20,000 bases of DNA. Source: Folioceros fuciformis. Lineage: Eukaryota. The stretch covers positions 61,110 to 81,109 of the forward strand of contig JBNGIO010006336.1 in the NCBI GenBank assembly GCA_049999805.1, written 5' to 3'. The stretch's first letter is position 1, and each line of letters begins with the position of its first letter. Positions 1,930 to 13,680 of the stretch are shown piece after piece. A program made the position numbers and the translations under genes. Under the pieces are notes generated by a model. It was not told where the DNA came from. It made no database searches and was given only the letters and a program-made list of their open reading frames with translations.

Positions 1930-2082
1930 ACCGCGAGGAATAAAACACCTACTTTGTGCCCTATGACTGAAGGAGGCACAAGCATTATGTCCGTTATATT
2001 TGCACCGCGAGGAATAAAACACCTACTTTTTGTGCCCCATGACTGAAGGGGGCACAAGCATTATGTCCGTTATATTTGCACC
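1930..2082. repeat. Tandem duplication, 2 x ~75 bp, each unit with an internal hairpin
   Basis: ACCGCGAGGAATAAAACACCTACTTT(TT)GTGCCC.ATGACTGAAGG.GGCACAAGCATTATGTCCGTTATATTTGC occurs twice. TTGTGCC...GGCACAA forms an inverted repeat within each unit. Confidence 0.95.
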
Positions 2083-2255
2083 ATATACCACCGACCTAAA
2101 ACTTCTATGAAAGAACCCCGTCCGTATCGATATTCCAGATTTGTGTCCCAGGCTAATTGTTGATTAAAATGTGTTGGAGAAGACGGGAGGGGCACAGGAT
2201 GGGACAAGACGTAGACGGCACTGCACGGGAACGGAAAGGGACGGGCAAGGGTTCA

Positions 2256-2404
2256 TGGGAGGGTTGGATTGGGGGGTTTCGGTTTGCATTATCATGCATT
2301 TCGTGTCGCCTGCAGCGATCACCGCTGAACTGAGAGAGCTCTGGGAGGGTTGGATCGGGGGGTTCGGGTTTGCTGTATCACGCATGTCGTGTCACCTTCA
2401 GCAA
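2256..2404. repeat. Diverged direct repeat, 2 x ~63 bp, G-rich
   Basis: TGGGAGGGTTGGAT(T/C)GGGGGGTT..GGTTTGC..TATCA.GCAT.TCGTGTC.CCT.CAGC at ~2256 and ~2342. Confidence 0.8.
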
Positions 2405-2699
2405 GGTTTCGGACCTTTTTTTTCATGGACGATGGAGCATGTCCGTTGTGGGATTTTCCTTTGAACAACAACCATCTATTCGTCTTATGCGCCACAACGG
2501 CCATGTGTGGTGTGTTAAGAAAGAATTGACACCTCTCCTCTGTCCTCTGTGATATGCCATAGTGCTAACAAGTACATGGTCACAGATTTCCTCTGTCAAG
2601 TGTGATCACACGTAGCTCTAATACAACCAAAACAGAGAAAGCCTAAAAGTCGAGAGTTGATTGGCTTGCACGCACCTACACACAGCCCGAAAGTTGAGA

Positions 2700-4990
2700 A
2701 GTGTGACTGCCCCAGTTTCTTTACTTGATCAAGAGGTGCTCATTACCTGGTACGAGCTGTCTGCATTCAGCAACATAAAATGCACTCAACTCTGTTCTCA
2801 GAGAGTTGTACCTTTCACTTGCAACCTCCCGCTTCCGTGGTAGCCTCCCGCTTGACCAGTAACCTCCCTTTACCTTTAAATTGCCCTCCCTCAACTCTGC
2901 CGACACGCATTCAGGTCGAAGAAAGAACATCTTCATCCAAGACAGATCAAGTCTCAAGGAGTGGTGGCCATGACGACAGTTACATTGTTCCAGCGCCTGC
3001 AACTGGCACAGAGCAAGAGACCTCGGGAACGCGATGCACACAAAGAAACTTACGTGATCTTCTAAACCGTCAGAAAGCTGCGGATGTCACTGGCCGCAGA
3101 CGATGTGTCATGTTGTATTAAGCGTTGAACGCGAGCACAAGCATGCGCTGCGCCAACTGGTGAGCATCATCGCAGATAACAGTGCAGGGAAACAGAGTCT
3201 GCCCTGGAAGATGAAAGGAGGAAACGTAACTTTAAACGCTGGCGCAATGAAGACATGGAGGATATTGCAAAGAGACACTATCGCGCAGCGTGAGCACTAT
3301 GAAAAGTACCCTCGGCTGCAGTGTATCCGAGCCATGCAATTATCGTACCAGGCCTCACTGCGCTAACCTCTCAGCTCGAACGACGGCAGTACTCACTGCT
3401 CTTGACAAAGCTTGAAAATCAGAGTTACTGATACACCACGGGGCCAATAGTTTGCAGCGCCATGACCGTCCATGAACCATAACAACTGCAAGCCAACCAT
3501 TGAAAGAGGCAGAAGCCATGACAAGTTGAGCATAGGAAAGACAAGCTTCAGACAATATTGCAAGCAAGAGAAGACATCTACGGAAGCGAATCGGAAAGAC
3601 AAATCTAGCTAGACACTGCAAGCAAAGAACGCTGGGTCCCAAGAACTGCTGCTGACTAGAGAGAGAAGGGTGGATCACCTGGAGCATTTCTCCAACCCCG
3701 TGAGACTGACCCTGTCGCTGCTGAGGTTAACTTCGCAAGACGACGGTGTCAAGAACTGAAGCAGGGACTCTTGGATGCACGCAGCTTGGCACGATTCACT
3801 GCTTGGAGGCTTGCTTGCTGGCTAGCTAGACTGTCATGCCTTCGTGGAGAGGCAAGATCAAGAGAAACCGGTAGAGATGAAGCGATGTGTATGTCACGCT
3901 CTCGGATTCGCAGTGTAGTGTAACCTACCCTGGAACCGGGCCTCGGGAATGACTAGTCCTTCCGGCAGCGGCTAGCTAACTTTATAACGAAGTTATGGAA
4001 AGGAAGTGGAGGCTAAAAGCTGATACCACATAGGGTTAAGCGAGCCTGGTAAGCTCCATCGTCGTGCACAACTGGATGCTGATGCGGGTGTATCCAGGCA
4101 GAGGCAGGCGCTGAAAGGTAGGGGAGCGTGCCAAGCTACGTGCTTCGAAGAGGAGAGCTCTCTTGCCGATAGTTTTTGAAGAAGTCGTGGATCGATTCTT
4201 CGTCGCTCAGCCTGGCCATGCCCAACATGCGAGGCGACGAGAGGTCACATCGATGACTACGATCTTGCAGAAAACTGATATCGGGAGCGCGGACGGCGGA
4301 TCTGCGAGAACACGTGCAGTTGATATGTAAATCGGCATCTACTGCAGAGATCTCACAGACTGTGCTCAGCACGGTTGTGGCGTATGATTCTAAGCAAATA
4401 ACCTAGAAACAACAGCACAGACGGACGACACCGGATACAAGCCCGCGGCGTGCAGAGTCCGGAGCCTCATGGCGCAAGGAAACGGGGAGAAGCGCGGGAG
4501 GCAGCGGCAGGGCAACCCCGCCTCACTTCCTCCTCGCGGACAGGCAGCGGGCTAGCAGACAGCACAGTAATGAGGACTCACGTTGCTGGAGGCTCCTGTT
4601 TATACATAACCCAGCAAGCTGGACTGAGGCGGGACTCGGGCTGTGCTTTGCTGTGCTGTGCTATGCTGTGGGGACCCACAGCCCCTCCAGTGCGGTAGAG
4701 ATTCCAGTAGCACGCGTACGTCCTCTTGGCTGCCCGCCGGAAGAGAAGGGAGAGGAAGCGAGCGGCAGGAGCCGGGCCACAGCGAGGCGGAGGAGGGCAA
4801 ATCTTTTCGATGCTCTCGTGGCCGCTGCAGGTCGCGGCCCGCACCTGGCCACGACAGATTTTCGACATGAAATTACGAGCATTGGCAGACAGAAGAGGTA
4901 ATATGGGGAGAGCCGAGCGAGTTGTCGCGTTGCGAGTGGAAGGAAAAATCAGTGTGCTCTCATGAACTAGGGTTTGTGGGTTTGCCGTTT
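2700..4990 (-). ncRNA. Putative spliced pri-miR536 host transcript (multi-exon, no long ORF)
   Basis: Chain of minus-strand GT..AG candidate introns with pyrimidine-rich 3' ends: 4719-4403 (GTACGC..TTTCTAG), 3678-3486 (GTGATC..TTGCAG), 3367-3204 (GTTAGC..TTCCAG), plus a donor GTAAGT at 3053. The joined exons give only short ORFs. Transcript ends are estimates. Confidence 0.5.
3700..4250 (-). ncRNA. MIR536: MIR536-like microRNA precursor hairpin (mature on 3' arm 3794->3774, star on 5' arm 4144->4124)
   Basis: Minus strand 3794->3774 reads UCGUGCCAAGCUGCGUGCAUC, about 1-2 differences from the miR536 family as I recall it (UCGUGCCAAGCUGUGUGCA[A/U]C). Minus 4152->4124, CUCUUCGAAGCACGUAGCUUGGCACGCUC, pairs with it over 17 contiguous bp (one G:U), with mismatches only at mature positions 1 and 19. 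The lower stem extends through CUCUU/AAGAG, CAAGA/UCUUG, GACUUC/GAAGUU, GCUGAG/CUCAGC and UGACC..GUCGC/GCGAC..GGUCA. Confidence 0.85.
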
Positions 4991-5055
4991 GTGGCTCACA
5001 CGCCACACCGTAGCTTATTTTAATAAGGCCCGTTTCACAAGCCCGGTATAAATCC
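4968..5055 (-). promoter_or_regulatory. Candidate Pol II promoter: telo-box, TATA-like tract and site II-like GGCCC/GCCC motifs
   Basis: AAACCCTA on the minus strand (TAGGGTTT at 4968-4975 on +). TATTAAAATAA on minus at ~5015-5025. AGGCCCG and AAGCCCG at ~5026-5045. These lie at the GC-rich to AT-rich transition upstream of the MIR536-like transcript. Confidence 0.5.
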
Positions 5056-5113
5056 TGACACGCCTCATTCGATTGGAGGGTTGATTTGTACCCGATTCAC
5101 AAGGACTAGATAA

Positions 5114-5284
5114 CCCACACCCTGGCTCTTACGTGCCCACACCCTGGCTCTTACGTGGATGCCACGGCAGGGTGTTTTTTATGTCAGACAACACCAAAGT
5201 AAGTATGTGCCCACACCCTGGCTCTTACGTGGATGTCATGGCAGGGTTTTTTTTTTATGTCAGAAAACACCTTAGTAAGTACAT
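5114..5284. repeat. Nested tandem repeats (22-bp unit CCCACACCCTGGCTCTTACGTG x3 within a ~74-bp duplication)
   Basis: The 22-mer occurs at ~5114, ~5136 and ~5209. The last two copies are each followed by GATG.CA.GGCAGGGT.TTTT..ATGTCAGA.AACACC..AGTAAGTA. Confidence 0.9.
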
Positions 5285-5377
5285 ATGTGAGGACGTTGTT
5301 GTCAATCCCAAGATGGTAGTGGAGGCTTATGCAAGTGCCAAAGTTCATAATTATTCTTTTATGTAAGGCAAGCATAT

Positions 5378-5449
5378 TTTCATCCTCTTAGTCATGGACA
5401 AGGATTTTTCAAGTTTCATCCTCTTAGTCATGGACAAGGATTTTTCAAG
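5378..5449. repeat. Perfect tandem duplication, 2 x 36 bp
   Basis: TTTCATCCTCTTAGTCATGGACAAGGATTTTTCAAG twice. Confidence 0.95.
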
Positions 5450-5549
5450 GTTCATAAAAAGGAGTGTGCAAAGGTATATCAGAGTCATAGGAATAGGAAT
5501 GGTGTTCTTCCTCTTTCCTTTCTAGCAGCCTTCTTTGACAATGTGTATC

Positions 5550-5655
5550 CATTGCTTTGTAAAGAGCATTAGCCAACGCCGTTTAGAACAACAACAAGCA
5601 CATTGCTTTGCAAAGAGCATTAGCCAATGCCGTATTTAGAACAACAACAAGCACA
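5550..5655. repeat. Tandem duplication, 2 x ~52 bp
   Basis: CATTGCTTTG(T/C)AAAGAGCATTAGCCAA(C/T)GCCGT(AT)TTAGAACAACAACAAGCA twice. Confidence 0.95.
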
Positions 5656-5821
5656 TGTCAAGCCTCTTTTCGACACCGGTTGGTTGGTAGGTAGGCCTTT
5701 TGTTATTCTACATCATGACATTTTGCGAATAATAGGTAGTTTTTTAGAATGATGTTGTTGTATCTTTTGGGCCTTTGGTCCTGTTCGGGTTATTCCTCTT
5801 CTCTTTTATCTTTGGAGTAGA

Positions 5822-5899
5822 TGGGACGTTCCATATCTTTAGAGTAAAGATAATAAACTTTGGGACGTTCCATATCTTTAGAGTAGAGATAATAAATTT
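5822..5899. repeat. Tandem duplication, 2 x 39 bp
   Basis: TGGGACGTTCCATATCTTTAGAGTA(A/G)AGATAATAAA(C/T)TT twice. Confidence 0.95.
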
Positions 5900-6337
5900 T
5901 CAATAGTAATAAAATAAATAAATCAACTTTCTAATTTTTTTCGTACAATAAATAAATAAAAACTTTGATTCAAAAATAAGCCTCATGTATCAATTTATAA
6001 TACAAACTATGTACCCCAAAGGGACAACCATATCACACAACAAAAAAAAAGGCTTAGCTTAGCCCGTCTTCAATTACACCTAAAAGTCCTTTGTGGTCTA
6101 TAATGATTGCCTACACTTGTTTGCAACTACTGTACTATACTATGAGATAATGACTAACCATGTGTTTCTTAGAGACATTAAACAATTGCCAAAGAGTTTA
6201 TAATGTTGTGTGGCATCTATCATCATATTAGTTCTTGCTACCTCCAAACTTACTTAGATAACATCTTCCATAGTCTAGATCAGTAATGAATGGTGCCCTT
6301 AGGATTTAGTCCCCTTCAACATCGTTACCTTTGTGGT

Positions 6338-6354
6338 TTTAGGGTTTAGGGTTT
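6338..6354 (+). repeat. Short interstitial plant telomere-type repeat (TTTAGGG)2 / double telo-box
   Basis: TTTAGGGTTTAGGGTTT. Confidence 0.6.
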
Positions 6355-6844
6355 TCTGTGGTGAATGGGTTTTTTCATATTGTTTTTTAACTAAAGTCTC
6401 CATTTACTGGTATTAGCGACATGGTATTGACATGACTCTTGCTCTTGCCTTTCATCAAACTATCATGATATTATAAGGAGACCTTCTTTGCTAATTTCCT
6501 CTAAAAACTTTCTGAACGAGAACAAACTAAACAGTAAATCAAGCTTCCGAAATATGATACTTTCCAAAGCCTTCTTTTGTGCCTAATAACGTACATGGAC
6601 TTGGCAATGTCTCCATTGTTATAATTTATCCTTGATCATCATTTTCTTATATTGTATTAAAATATCAAATCTTTTTATATTTATTTTATATCTATGTTAT
6701 TTCCTTTTTGATGGTTTATTATAGAAACCAAAATCCCATTCAATGAGGTGAAAATGTGTTTCAAAGAGGTTCCGATAAGATTTTTTGGATAGCCGGATTC
6801 CTGCAAAGGTTTAATATGTTGTTTCAACACCGTGGGATCGACAA

Positions 6845-6925
6845 GTCAATATGGCCGAGTGGTTAAGGCGACAGACTTGAAATCTGTTGGGTTCGCCCGC
6901 GCAGGTTCGAACCCTGCTGTTGACG
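6845..6925 (+). tRNA. tRNA-Ser (anticodon UGA)
   Basis: Acceptor stem GTCAATA/TGTTGAC with discriminator G. A-box TGGCCGAGTGG. Anticodon stem ACAGA-CT TGA AA-TCTGT (anticodon 6878-6880). Long variable arm GGGTTCGCCC. T-arm GCAGG-TTCGAAC-CCTGC. A CAA motif lies immediately upstream, as in plant nuclear tRNA genes. Confidence 0.97.
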
Positions 6926-7552
6926 CCGACTTTCACTACTCCAAGGACTTCTGTTTAATGTGCTTTTAATAATATGACGGAACAAGTCTGGCAATGAACA
7001 GCTGTAGGCAGTGATTGAGGCGTTACAAGATAGAAAGCAACTTCGCAGACAGTCCACTAAACTAGCCGCCATGGAGCATCGTTTTGGCGTTTCTTTCACC
7101 CGCTTCTAACAAGCCCGATACACATGAGGGAAGAAACCAAAAGAAATCTGTTCTACCTGTTTAATCCCACCGAGGAAAGCGCGGTCGACAGTACACATCC
7201 GCGAGGAATAAGTATGACAGAAGGTTGTGTCATATCCCGGAGTGAGGTTCCTCGATCCTCACACTTCGTGTCGTCGTGCGTCTGGAAAAGGCGACGAGCT
7301 TCCTGAGAAATCTCCTCGCGCTGGTGATCTGAGACCTTGTGAAGACTGCAAAGCGCGTTTCGGAGGGCGAACGAGTATCCGGTGCGGGTTTTGAGCAGCG
7401 TTGTTATGTCCGGTGTGACATCCCGGTGTTGCCAAGACTTGCGAGCCTGTGAATCAGTGGAGGCTGCGTGATTGGTTTGGCCTGCTGGGATATCAGGTTT
7501 CTCGTGTAAGCCTGAGGGTTGTCTCGCCGTCTTTGTGCTAGGAGTGAGGAAC

Positions 7553-8598
7553 ATGGAGAACCGTGAGTACGATGTTGCCAGAGAAGAGCAGGAGGCTCTG
7601 TTGAGTTACTACAAGGGGGAGAAAGAGCCGGAGACGAAGGATGCAGAAGCAGGGACTGAGACGAAGGATGCAGCATCAGGGACACCAGACGGTGGATCGG
7701 CCGATGGCTTGCCTGTTGCAGCAGTGGCACTGGTCGGTCGCACCCCGTGGAGCTCCGGCTTGCTGGAATGCCTGAGTTGTAACGATGAGTATCTCGGCAG
7801 CGACATGGAAGTCTGTAAGTTTTTCGATCCCTTTCTGTCAGCGTGGTCCGGCATGTTTTTGCGAGTTATCAGGTCTTTAAACTTTGTTGAGGCCAGGGTT
7901 GTGTGATTAGCTTTTTATGCTTCTCCAGAGTGTGAGGATGGAGGGCTGGGTTGGCCTGGCTCTCTTGTCTTTTTCGTGATTGATCGACCGACACTTTCTT
8001 ACGGTGTTGTTGATGTTTGTGGAACAGGTTGCATGGGTCTCTTTTGCCCTTGTGTGCTTTATGGGAGTAACGTGGATCGTCTTCATCCTTCACAGGAGCT
8101 ATTCCTCCAGCACTGTATGTTTTACACTAGCCTGTGTGTGTTCGGTAACTCTCTGTTCGGGAGCAATTACCTGGCCCCTTGCGTTTCATACCCGAGCAGG
8201 TCTGCCCTTCGGAGGAAGTTCAACCTGGAGGTAACTAAAGTTTACAGGCGCTTTGTAGTACTTATCCTGTTTTCCCTTTTTGCTTCAGCTCTTCCAAACA
8301 CGTGGAAAGGAACCTAGTTTGAAGACTTTGACCGTTCACAGAATCTGATCTTCGGGTGTGAATTGTTTCTTAGGGCCATGGAGAGTATATCATGAAAAAT
8401 CTTGGCTGTGCGTGGGAATCAGAGGAAGTACGTGAAAGCTGCGATGTATGTTGTGACATAGCTGTCCACTTTTGGTGCCATACTTGTGCCCTTTGCCAGG
8501 AAGGGCGGGAGCTGAGGAGGAGGGTGCCTAACCCCGGATTCAACTTATCTTTTGTGCCCATGAGGGCTCCGATGCATCAGTCTATGAGCTCTCAGTGA
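7553..8598 (+). CDS. PLAC8-family protein, cell number regulator 8 (CNR8)-like; exons 7553-7814, 8028-8230, 8374-8598 (~229 aa)
   Basis: The spliced product reads MENREY...GRTPWSSGLLECLSCNDEYLGSDMEV|CCMGLFCPCVLYGSNVDRL...APCVSYPSRSALRRKFNLE|GHGE...CDIAVHFWCHTCALCQEGRELRRR...MSSQ*. It carries the PLAC8 motifs CxxGxxCPC and CALCQExREL. Introns are canonical (GTAAGT..AACAG, GTAACT..CTTAG) with compatible phases (1, 0). A likely 5'UTR acceptor GCTAG ends at 7541. Confidence 0.93.
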
Positions 8599-10454
8599 TG
8601 GCCCTCAGCAAGGTCTGAGGCGGCATTTATGGTCGTATGTGGCACCTAGCCCGGACTGGACCGAGGGGTACCTACCGTATTTTCTCGCGTCCTCTATGAG
8701 ATTAGACTGAGCTGATTCCTTGTTCCTCAAAGACAATTGTTTTTGGGATTTGAGTAGAAACTATGGTTGCCTCTATGTCGACGGGTGGAGTTTGTGCATG
8801 GTCCGTTTTACTTACTGAAAATGATCATTGTCACAGCTTTCGGACTGTCAGATGAGTCACTACAAATTGGTCACTGTAGTACAATTGCGTAGTCGGAGCT
8901 CTGGAAGTAGAGAAAATTGGAACAGTGAGTCCCAAGTATGACTTTGTCTACCTTGAAACTCATTGTGCAGTCATGTGGTAGGATAGAGATCGTGCAGAGT
9001 TGAGGTACCCATTACACTACGAAGCCGTGAGCTCTGCGTTTGGATTTCCTGTTTCCTTTCAAGAGATGTTGCCAAGACGACCTTGTCGTTCCAGATATCC
9101 GCTGTGTGCAATCCGCTTCGGTGGCATGCAAATTTAATGTCATGAATTCATCTGAACTTTGCTCCTCGTCCGCACGTATATTTTACATGTTTCTCCCGTG
9201 CTGAATCACGCCCAAGCACGTCTAGGGCTCCGAGCACATGTACGGCCGCGAACACCGATGAGTATGCTTATGCAGATACTGAGGAGTCACTGTATGTCTA
9301 ACTTCAGGCGTGGCCAGCCGTCAAGCCCCAGCTGCTTGTTTGCAACTCCCTAGGCCTGAGACTGTGGGATCCAACCCTTAGCCGAACCCCTGGCCCGTCA
9401 GATCATCCCCTGGAATTATGAGGTCACGTTCCAGCGTAACCCTGTCTTGGTCGTCGCTCCGGCTGTTCCAAGAATTCTTCTCTCGACACCCCGTTTTTAA
9501 GTTAGGCATTCATCATGGCCTCGAACGTTGAGGGAATTGCATGTCCGCCCTCGGAAACCTCAAGAATCATGGCCAATTCTTGGTCTACTTTCCGGGCAGG
9601 TATTGGAGGTGAAGGACGCTTTCATTGCACAACATTACGCAGTTGACCTAAAGCTGGATTTGAATTTAACTAGCCCGAGAGTTAAACATGCAGCTACCGT
9701 ACAAGTGATTGCTGCAGCCGGTTGTTGAATGCATGTCCCGACTCATGACGCTTCCGACTGCCGGATCGCACGCTACAGCCAAGGATGCAATCTGTGAGGA
9801 CTCAAGCCTCTTAGCACAAATTGAATTCTGTGACAGTCACTGAACACGGTTTGCCGTCCAGCATACCTTTGGAAAGCTTTCAGGACCCTTTTGCTTTTTC
9901 AGCATTCGCACAATCGCAAATTGTCTAGAACAACTAGTTGCTTAGAACACAGGAAGTAGAACAGAACCAAGCAAAAGAAACTCTCCAATCCAATTGCCAT
10001 ACACGACAACAAGAAAGAAAATTGAACATGCCAGTAAGATGGACCGAAGACAGAGGGTCTTGACATGCAAAGGATTTCAATGAAAACTTCTCCGATCTGA
10101 ATACCCTAGGTGACAACAAGAAAGAAAGAAAACAATCAAGGTCCAGTATGTGACAGCAAGAAGGAAAAGAAACAATATGGATGGGCGCTAAGTGCTCCTT
10201 GAACTATTCCTTAAGCTGGATAGCATTGCTAAGACTAATAAGCCTTTGGAAACACCTCACTCTGGAGATAGCTCCACACGTCTTTGTCCTTGCATGCAAG
10301 ACTCATCACCTAGCCTAATTATACTAGTAGAGGGAACAAACTAATCCAGTTCAAAGGTTTTGAACTTTAGGAGTTTCCAAGGTAAAAGAAATAAAATTTA
10401 TATAGTCCCCAATCCCAACATTGATTAGCCTAGACACATGGTTAACTTCAAAGT

Positions 10455-12124: not shown

Positions 12125-13680
12125 CTAGTGGACGCATTTCCCGGCTCTTTCCAGCTGGACGTCGTTTCCACAAGGTATCAGATGGAGGCATGCCACTGTC
12201 CCCCTAACCATTGCTACTTTACGCAATTTTCTACTGGCAATCGCAAAGTTTGAAGGAGTTCTGACAACTTGCATCCCGTACATTGCTCCACGCATGTAAG
12301 ACCTAGCTGGCAAGAATCAGCACTTACAACATCAATGATGGCTTCAGCATCTTGCATCCCGGCAGCGATATGCAGCGGGGTGATGCCCCTGGGGCCAAGC
12401 ATATCTGGAGTGAATATGGGGGCGTGCACAGCTTTCAGATCTGACAAGCCTGTCTCTGGATTTCCAGCCACATCCAGAGGCACATTAGGGGCACATGCTA
12501 GCAGAGGCTAAACCATGGATCCAGAATTCCTCCTTGCTGTTTTGTGCAACAGAATCACTCCCCCCATTCCTCCTCACTGCTCTGTGCACCAGAGTCACTC
12601 CCTCCATGCAGGTCTCCGAAACCCCCAAAGATAACCTATCCACCTCGGCGGATGCAAAGTACGAGTCCAGCACCTTCTTCACCCGAGTACACCAATCCCG
12701 TTCCACAGAGTAGACAAGCAGGCGCTCAAGACGCAAACTTATCCTACTGGCACCATCTAGATGTCCTGGTTCTGGACTAGCCATGCTCCTCTGCAACAAG
12801 CATCCTAGTTCAAAGAGGAACTTCCTCACTTCAGCATCAGCGGTCGGCCGAGCTGTGTTTGCATACTCGGATACTTCATAAGGAAGGAGACCACTGTCTT
12901 CAGGTTTCTGTCCTGATTTGTGCACTGCAACTTCTACCGCATTCTCCAGGGTGCGGACCTCTGCACCCAACGGCACTCTCCGCAACCAATACAGGTAACG
13001 TATTGCTCCGGCTTCCACTCTGCTGCACCCCAATAAAGCATCTGTACAGGAACTGAGTCGGCCACAATCAAAGCCAGACTGCTGACCGGGTAGAAGAAGA
13101 TGACCCAAAGGCCCAACTTGAGAACTCTCCACATCATCCTCTGACTCAAGTAGGGAAGGCCTTCTTTCCAGACTCTTCCCATTGTACAGGCAGTTAACTC
13201 GGGCATGAGCTTTCCAAACAAGACAAGTCTAGTCTTACGATCCAACACAACGGCAATTGGTGTAAGCGACAGAGAATGTGGAGGGAAAGGTGGTGTCATC
13301 ACCCTGTACATTTGGACCTTAGTGTCACAGATGAAGATCGTTTGTTCCTCTACCTGCACTTCAATACGTCCTGTGCTCCAAAAGCCTCGCAATCTCTAAG
13401 AGAAGGTTCCAACTCTGCCGCACTCCGCAGTCTTCCACATATCCCTCTCACGCCTCATCAGGTAAAGCAAAATCGTTAACATTAGACAGCCTGGTTTGAA
13501 GTAGGTCTCCATATGTACGGGTGCATGGGACAACCAGAGCGGAGGCCCTGGGGAATGCCTCCTGGATTGCTATCAAACAACTTGATCTGTATCCGACCAA
13601 CCAAATGTTGGTCGTCTGCATTTGAGGTCACCGGAGAGAAGTCTGATCCCGAACCGGAGTTTTCACTTGACATGTCTTCT
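12125..13680 (-). pseudogene. SPL1/SPL12-clade SQUAMOSA-promoter-binding-like (ankyrin-containing) pseudogene, C-terminal two thirds, frameshifted and apparently intronless
   Basis: Colinear motifs across frames: GRIQIKLFDSNP..LRS, METYFKPGC.MLT, FWSTGRIEVQV, SLTPIAV, AEVRTLE, FLFELGCLLQRS, LLVYSVERDWC..VKKVLD, LVHRAVRRN, FTPDMLGPRGITPLHIAAG..AEAIID, RGTVACLHLI. These match SPL1-type GRIVFKLF..MESYIRPGC..FIHEIGWLL..LLHRAVRKN..GLTPLHIAAG. There are multiple frameshifts, and I could not recognise an SBP domain upstream. Confidence 0.85.

Follow-up and report, generated by a model that had tools for sequence, protein, structure and literature searches.

A probable MIR536 gene with arms more than 300 nt apart in Folioceros fuciformis

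The microRNA (miRNA) miR536 is reported from a hornwort, liverworts and a moss, where it is among the few families common to all of them (PMC9291395), and likewise from a lycophyte (PMC5569507) and ferns (PMC5426797). In moss, miR536 reportedly cuts F-box and ABI3 transcripts (PMC4957126), and Physcomitrium (Physcomitrella) patens is listed with six MIR536 copies (PMC4957126; PMC4788410, Table 5). The miR536 precursor of Marchantia is described as dropping in a dcl1a mutant (PMC11799827). Here we describe a locus on the minus strand of a stretch of 20,000 nucleotides (nt) from Folioceros fuciformis (GenBank assembly GCA_049999805.1, contig JBNGIO010006336.1, positions 61,110 to 81,109; the whole stretch is called the window, and positions are counted from its first letter). 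Judged by its letters, the locus is a further member of the already known miR536 family, and it is very probably a genuine MIR536 gene, that is, an independent non-coding unit of a land-plant genome.

Plant fold-backs are given as 53–938 nt overall, and predictors as working in windows of 300–500 nt (PMC7924660), while miRScore gives plant precursors above 300 nt a warning, not a failure (PMC12594335). For liverworts, the reported values include fold-backs of 55–834 nt in Pellia (PMC4368373) and a Marchantia pre-miRNA of 913 nt (PMC9291395, Table 1). Like the liverwort MIR genes with long fold-backs, the locus in the window has a long fold-back in an independent non-coding unit; unlike it, those genes mostly encode lineage-specific miRNAs. 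The length of a MIR536 fold-back was not found in the literature searched, which did not cover the Pellia table and the supplements, and a long spacer throughout the family may well be visible already in miRBase. The parts of the fold-back are given below, with columns referring to an alignment (A1) of 14 precursors, i.e., the window and 13 distinct relatives.

4120–4152, minus strand: 5′ arm of the fold-back, with the star strand and the 5′ side of the lower stem (A1 columns 71–103)
3768–3800, minus strand: 3′ arm of the fold-back, with the mature strand and the 3′ side of the lower stem, CCAAGAG (A1 columns 810–842)
3774–3794, minus strand: predicted mature miR536, 21 nt with a 5′ U, on the 3′ arm, assigned by homology and pairing
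4124–4144, minus strand: predicted miR536 star strand, 21 nt, on the 5′ arm, pairing with the mature 21-mer
3801–4119, minus strand: spacer ('loop'), 319 nt, predicted to be multibranched at minimum free energy (MFE), sequence not conserved
4157–4167, minus strand: candidate 5′ side of a lower-stem extension, uncertain, pairing with 3745–3762
3745–3762, minus strand: candidate 3′ side of the lower-stem extension, uncertain, pairing with 4157–4167 in one folding context

A repeat search returned the two arms as segments of 33 nt each, 82% complementary and 319 nt apart, which rank best among the six inverted pairs (20 nt or longer, up to 1500 nt apart) of the whole window. On the minus strand, positions 4143–4127 and 3777–3793 form 17 contiguous pairs, one of them G-U; a scan of the window for inverted repeats of 17 or more contiguous pairs within 1000 nt gave exactly one on the minus strand, whereas the plus strand had none. 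From its base, the arm helix consists of 5 pairs, a C·C mismatch, 2 pairs, an A·A mismatch and 17 pairs, followed by poor pairing on the loop side. Within it, the miRNA/miRNA-star duplex is mismatched at miRNA positions 1 (U·C) and 19 (A·A), contains no bulge and ends in 2-nt 3′ overhangs. A previous reading of the window made without database searches (the sequence-only reading) had proposed this inverted repeat, its minus-strand duplex with 17 contiguous base pairs (bp) and 2-nt 3′ overhangs, and arms ∼330 nt apart. Its position and its mature and star letters were all confirmed, as were the overhangs and the distance, which counted from star to mature strand is 329 nt (4123–3795).

According to criteria reportedly set out by Axtell and Meyers in 2018, a plant miRNA duplex should have 2-nt 3′ overhangs, no more than five mismatched positions and no more than three of these in asymmetric bulges, in a fold-back of up to ∼300 nt. 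With two mismatched positions, one G-U pair, no bulge and the overhangs just described, the duplex lies within these bounds, whereas the fold-back exceeds the length guideline, as it measures 385 nt from arm to arm (3768–4152) or 371 nt from the 5′ end of the star to the 3′ end of the mature strand. The remark in the sequence-only reading that a hairpin this long could escape predictors with a length cap fits both the miRScore warning above 300 nt (PMC12594335) and the predictor windows of 300–500 nt (PMC7924660).

The mature 21-mer shares 19 of 21 letters with the Physcomitrella miR536 clone 3-60 (PMC1838911), from which it differs by C for U at position 14 and by U for A at position 20, and nowhere else. 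The table of that paper calls a 22-nt Physcomitrella clone identical to miR536, and it was compared from its second letter on. In line with this, the fern sequence of PMC5426797, for which 'ppt-miR536a 3p' is given as the nearest reference, has U14 and A20. The mature strand of the window (3794 to 3774) lies downstream of the star (4144 to 4124) and thus on the 3′ arm, as the '3p' of ppt-miR536a does. The MIR536 of P. patens and the locus in the window are therefore alike in 19 letters, in arm, in the length of 21 nt and in the 5′ U, and differ in that the window has C14 and U20 where P. patens has U14 and A20. With two mismatches to the printed Physcomitrella clone, the assignment to miR536 by the sequence-only reading stands within the limit of ∼3 that it had set; its C14 variant with a G on the star arm was also found, but it had overlooked the second difference at position 20. 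A literature text search found the 19-mer with C14 printed nowhere. The 12-mer core occurs in seven papers, as miR536 in PMC1838911 and PMC5426797, and further in a conifer miRNA paper and under four non-plant titles.

To find relatives, we searched metagenome contigs with a 19-nt degenerate pattern, which gave 23 loci, and used RNAduplex to look for the star arm of each, taken as the segment that pairs best with the mature region within 1200 nt upstream. A clean star arm was obtained for 18 of the 23 loci, 422–577 nt before the start of the mature strand and with duplex energies of −41 to −48 kcal/mol; the window gives 331 nt and −41.8 kcal/mol by the same measure. The 18 loci that were kept (L002, L003, L005, L006, L008-L013, L015 and L017-L023, on 14 contigs) reduce to 13 distinct precursors in five paralogue groups, A–E, which are 43–60% alike among themselves and 41–49% alike to the window. 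The single-letter variants of the window recur separately among them, C14 in group C and U20 in group D, so that the mature strand matches each of these groups in 20 of 21 letters. The pair that faces miRNA position 14 is G-C in the window and in group C, A-U in group D and G-U in groups B and E, and the position is unpaired in group A. The C with a G facing it, noted in the sequence-only reading, is thus one of several states in which this position stays paired.

Star, spacer and mature strand follow in the same order in the metagenome loci and in the window, with the same lower-stem letters, paired arms and a free spacer, and the arms are paired in the MFE structures of all 14 distinct precursors, the window included. 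The relatives differ from the window in a longer spacer, in a 1-nt bulge in the duplex, which the window lacks, and in an upper stem in some of them. Measured from the end of the shared GGCACG to the start of the mature strand, the spacer is 332 nt long in the window and 438–585 nt in the five groups. The 329-nt spacer that the sequence-only reading had singled out is thus correct in length, but it is not special to this locus: since all 18 relatives have spacers of hundreds of nucleotides (the 422–577 nt above), the long spacer is a trait of the family. Beyond 28–31 nt of the mature arm, no similarity was detected between relatives and window. A synteny comparison found no protein-coding similarity common to the window and the metagenome loci, and Pfam no family in 16 long open frames of the latter.

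The remaining five loci (L001, L004, L007, L014 and L016) were dropped. Their guanine-plus-cytosine fraction is 0.55–0.59, an open frame of 162–688 codons encloses the match, and the upstream duplexes are weak and gapped; for these three reasons we read them as chance matches in coding DNA. Three of them, L007 (1365-1383), L014 (1857-1875) and L016 (778-796), carry the exact 21-mer of the window, together with shared flanks, long open frames and no star arm. Most probably the 21-mer has arisen here by chance within a prokaryote-like gene, which calls for caution in searches that rely on the mature sequence alone.

Conservation analysis of A1 showed that invariant or nearly invariant columns fall almost wholly into the two arms. 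The homology extends beyond the mature strand, as the star arm and the lower stem of the window align with those of the 13 distinct relatives, and the lower-stem letters CCAAG that follow the mature strand are invariant or nearly so in all 14 rows. For the 27 arm pairs, 94.4% of the 378 cells hold standard pairs, compared with 32–46% when the partner is slid by 1–3 columns. Changes on both sides were seen at three arm pairs, e.g., at columns 72/841 (U-A in the window, C-G elsewhere) and 78/835 (A-U versus U-A), and the covariation score was equalled in 4 of 500 shuffles. Four pairs of near-identical loci, each pair from one group, show the same distribution, with differences in 2 of 264 columns in the arms, 137 of 1965 (7.0%) in the spacer and 443 of 4831 (9.2%) in the flanks. 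A motif search of the spacers yielded one nine-mer in five of six groups, against none to two in ten shuffles, and no conserved element. Constrained arms around a free loop are the usual picture of a miRNA gene, except that the loop measures hundreds of nucleotides in every member.

The 5′ arm is complementary to miR536 with three mismatches, as would be expected if the transcript were a target or decoy of miR536, with the 5′ arm as a binding site and the 3′ arm as a chance or duplicated copy. We regard this as very improbable: a target site needs no mature copy downstream, but all 18 plant-like relatives have two arms on one strand, and the changes between these arms compensate each other, which fits pairing within one molecule.

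Four contigs carry two MIR536 paralogues each (L002 with L006, L009 with L013, L018 with L023, and L020 with L021), combining groups A and B once and groups C and D three times, the latter on opposite strands. MIR536 has therefore been duplicated locally in those genomes. In groups A, B and C, letters directly after the star are held in common (around 'AGCCTTTAG' in B and C) and find their partners just ahead of the mature strand, forming an upper stem of ∼20 pairs that is absent from the window. This upper stem might give a second, phased duplex in the genomes concerned.

Transcription of the locus was followed with contigs from sequencing runs mapped over positions 2000–9000; such contigs carry neither strand nor true ends. 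One run, X1, is DNA. The other, X2, was classed as RNA not from its record label but from a spliced contig, because two GT..AG introns of the neighbouring PLAC8-family gene are spliced out of its contig 14. In agreement with this, X2 depth falls to zero in the bins 5744–6679 and 7148–7381. Two features of the transcription unit are proposed:

3707–4575, minus strand (strand deduced, as explained below): minimum extent of the primary transcript as RNA contigs, from X2 contigs 12 (3707–4303) and 13 (4274–4432)
4599–4604, minus strand: TATAAA, candidate TATA box of the MIR536 unit, with RNA cover ending ∼25–30 nt downstream of it

Contig 12 of X2 (587 nt, depth 27.6) spans 3707–4303 without a joint, so both arms and the whole spacer lie on one RNA. 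Depth in X2 is 26–34 over 3638–4573 and drops from 33.9 in the bin 4340–4573 to 0.25 in the bin 4574–4807. The TATAAA and this edge hint at a minus-strand RNA polymerase II (Pol II) unit that would start near 4575. We assign the transcript to the minus strand on the basis of the homology, the G-U pair, the position of the TATAAA and the 17 contiguous pairs found on this strand only. Pfam found no family in the four open frames within the transcript. On its 5′ part, the first ATG after the presumed start site begins an open frame of 26 codons (4390–4470, minus strand), with no ATG in 4580 to 4471, and this frame could be considered a candidate for a miPEP-like (miRNA-encoded) peptide. The runs X5 and X6, from other organisms of the same study, were uninformative, with no contigs matched at 80% likeness.

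Relative to the window, X2 contig 12 has substitutions at 3752, 3805, 3827, 3830 and 3840 and a 10-nt deletion at 3881. All changes thus fall within 3752–3890 and outside the arms, with none in the 66 nt of the arms over the 597 nt compared. The X1 DNA contains both the form of the window and that of contig 12, at depths of ∼10 and ∼16, and these are two haplotypes or very recent copies. As the X1 depth of 10–18 at the locus is near the baseline of 9–11, the locus is not a repeat. The two forms part below position 3707, 61 nt downstream of the 3′ arm, in the segment 3205–3706. Here, X2 has an RNA joint from 3204 to 3707 with 11 other letters between, X1 has a DNA joint from 3321 to 3707, and the form of the window itself is also found in both runs; we read this difference as structural variation between haplotypes or recent copies rather than as an intron.

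The continuous RNA also bears on how a short hairpin might arise. The spacer could be removed ahead of dicing, by splicing or by other cleavage, or the precursor could be processed from the loop side via an upper stem, and the ∼20-pair upper stem of three moss-like groups, with its common letters beside the star, would fit such a course, as would the intron-bearing MIR genes reported from liverworts (PMC4368373). However, the RNA contig runs without interruption over 3801–4119, none of the 15 listed joints (of 41) lies in the spacer, upper-stem pairs above the 17-bp core have a probability of only 0.00–0.07 in the window, and the spacers share no motif beyond chance. Removal of the spacer or processing from the loop side is accordingly a quite improbable explanation, and a precursor that keeps its long spacer remains our preferred reading.

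Folding of the minus-strand stretch 4260 to 3690 (571 nt) paired the arms in both the MFE and the centroid structure and with high pair probability, so that the check proposed with the sequence-only reading supports the hairpin. In partition functions for contexts of 492, 571, 751 and 1074 nt, 24 of the 33 arm positions have pair probabilities of at least 0.89 throughout, and the 17-bp core reaches 0.90–1.00. On the loop side of this core the window has no upper-stem extension, the four contexts giving the near-zero values cited above. On the other side, the stable and conserved lower stem beyond the duplex consists of just five pairs and one mismatch in all contexts. The candidate extension (4157–4167 with 3745–3762) pairs with probabilities of 0.47–0.96, forming a stem of ∼16 nt, in the 492-nt context only; in the other three contexts its strands, of which the 5′ flank is purine-rich, find other partners, and the substitution of the second haplotype at 3752 would disrupt one of its pairs. 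With 50-nt flanks, the expected number of lower-stem pairs within 25 nt is 15.6 for the window, 7.4–9.5 for 10 of the 12 relatives that could be scored, and 13.5 for one. Of the extended lower stem proposed in the sequence-only reading, the five pairs and the mismatch are thus both stable and conserved, but its further part appears in a single folding context.

Several results weigh against a functional MIR536 gene. Rfam 15 gave no match on positions 3500–4500 at E values up to 10, and the related loci were likewise without a match, five searched at E up to 1 and ten at the gathering score. The plant origin of the contigs with the 18 loci, which would make these proper comparators, is suggested by their miR536 build and their lack of coding signal, and is to that extent a deduction. 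Sense and antisense duplexes of the arms are similar in energy, so that the energy does not tell the strand. The stable lower stem covers ∼6 positions, short of the ∼15 of the rule for base-to-loop processing taken up below, and longer versions depend on context in the window and in most relatives. The entire 571-nt fold does not exceed shuffled sequence in stability (z −0.92; equally good folds were obtained for 17 of 100 shuffles), and the inverted repeat taken alone is mildly unusual, as 22 of 300 mononucleotide shuffles contain one of equal quality. This last figure would suit a chance inverted repeat that resembles miR536, an explanation that is scarcely conceivable given that a miR536-like 21-mer with its imperfect complement has a chance mean of 0.00 (two matches in none of 200 shuffles), that homology to the relatives extends over the star arm and lower stem, and that the region is transcribed.

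The unremarkable stability of the entire fold and the short lower stem with its unstable extension would also be expected of a transcribed relic, i.e., a former MIR536 gene whose branched spacer blocks DCL1 and which yields little or no miR536, and a precursor plentiful enough to assemble unprocessed at a depth of 27.6 points in the same direction. Against a relic speak the two intact arms with just two mismatches in the duplex, and the second haplotype, whose five substitutions and 10-nt indel in 597 nt all miss the 66 nt of the arms, a comparison of low power. Moreover, the 18 relatives share the long-spacer build, and their near absence of arm changes (2 of 264 columns, with 9% in the flanks) is unlike relics. 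We therefore consider a relic improbable and a genuine MIR536 gene the best account of the locus.

The observations are the sequence match, the pairing of the arms, their conservation and covariation, and an RNA that runs unspliced over the fold-back; from these we infer on which strand the RNA is made and where it starts, how DCL1 cuts it and in which direction it is processed, as well as loading and targets, as follows. Transcription by Pol II most likely begins near 4575, with the TATAAA at 4604–4599 upstream. The 5′ arm (4152–4120) would then lie ∼420 nt into the transcript and the 3′ arm (3800–3768) 319 nt further, and the two would pair over this distance in an interrupted helix of 24 bp that closes the multibranched, non-conserved spacer. 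By analogy with established plant miRNAs and with moss miR536, a DCL1-type enzyme would excise a single 21-nt duplex of miR536 (3794 to 3774) and its star strand (4144 to 4124), and the strand with the 5′ U would be loaded into an AGO1-type protein and direct target cleavage.

In base-to-loop processing, a lower stem of ∼15 nt below the duplex, followed by unpaired RNA, sets the first cut. The rule reportedly goes back to Mateos 2010, Song 2010 and Werner 2010, all cited in PMC4368373, and the sequence-only reading had likewise suggested this direction for the window. Precursors of this kind and the locus in the window share a free loop and a conserved structure at or below the duplex, but the stable lower stem of the window reaches ∼6 positions beyond the duplex, not ∼15. 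Only the duplex and a short lower stem (CUCUU/AAGAG in the window) are kept across the relatives. Because these are conserved and the loop is free, the first cut could be set from the base side, with the loop irrelevant to recognition; to judge from this pattern, we give base-to-loop processing roughly even, or slightly better, odds.

Besides the MIR536 locus, two further genes were identified in the window:

6845–6927, plus strand: tRNA-Ser (anticodon UGA) with a long variable arm (Rfam, 63.6 bits; ARAGORN agrees)
7397–9000, plus strand: PLAC8-family gene (Pfam PF04749, E 6.6e-10)

Rfam 15 found nothing besides the tRNA in the whole window. Contigs of X1 and X2 hold a variant copy of the tRNA-Ser that differs at 6874–6887. 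The PLAC8-family gene is strongly expressed in X2, where contig 14 (depth 444) lacks the introns 7815–8027 and 8229–8371. A high-copy repeat lies at 5276–5977, with an X1 DNA word depth of 404–2262 against the baseline of 9–11 and with many joints and loose ends; it is AT-rich and surrounded by weak inverted repeats. On the minus strand, 12217–13228 contains two long open frames of 247 and 97 amino acids with an ankyrin-like 'TPLHIAA' stretch, which may resemble the C-terminal part of long SBP-box (SPL) proteins, an unconfirmed likeness. Pfam assigned no family to either frame, and a search with the 247-amino-acid frame (12485–13228) among longer proteins found no relative. An assembly gap of 100 N occupies 729–828.

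The locus leaves the known picture of miRNA function unchanged and, if read correctly, adds a clear, expressed MIR536 member from a genome distant from the moss-like relatives. In all 19 MIR536 loci collected, the arms are more than 330 nt apart. Since this is beyond a 300-nt limit, annotations of non-seed plants could miss the gene and yet find its mature small RNA. Both the five paralogue groups and the window, whose lineage is distant, have retained the long spacer without conservation of its sequence, which raises the possibility, in our view an unlikely one, that a spacer of 330–590 nt is an ancestral MIR536 trait kept by selection. If so, the distance between the arms, or slow pairing over a long range, would affect how or when the precursor is diced, and MIR536 would provide a natural test of how DCL1 measures from a short lower stem without reference to the loop. 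Pipelines capped at 300 nt would then lose a family that dates back to early land plants.

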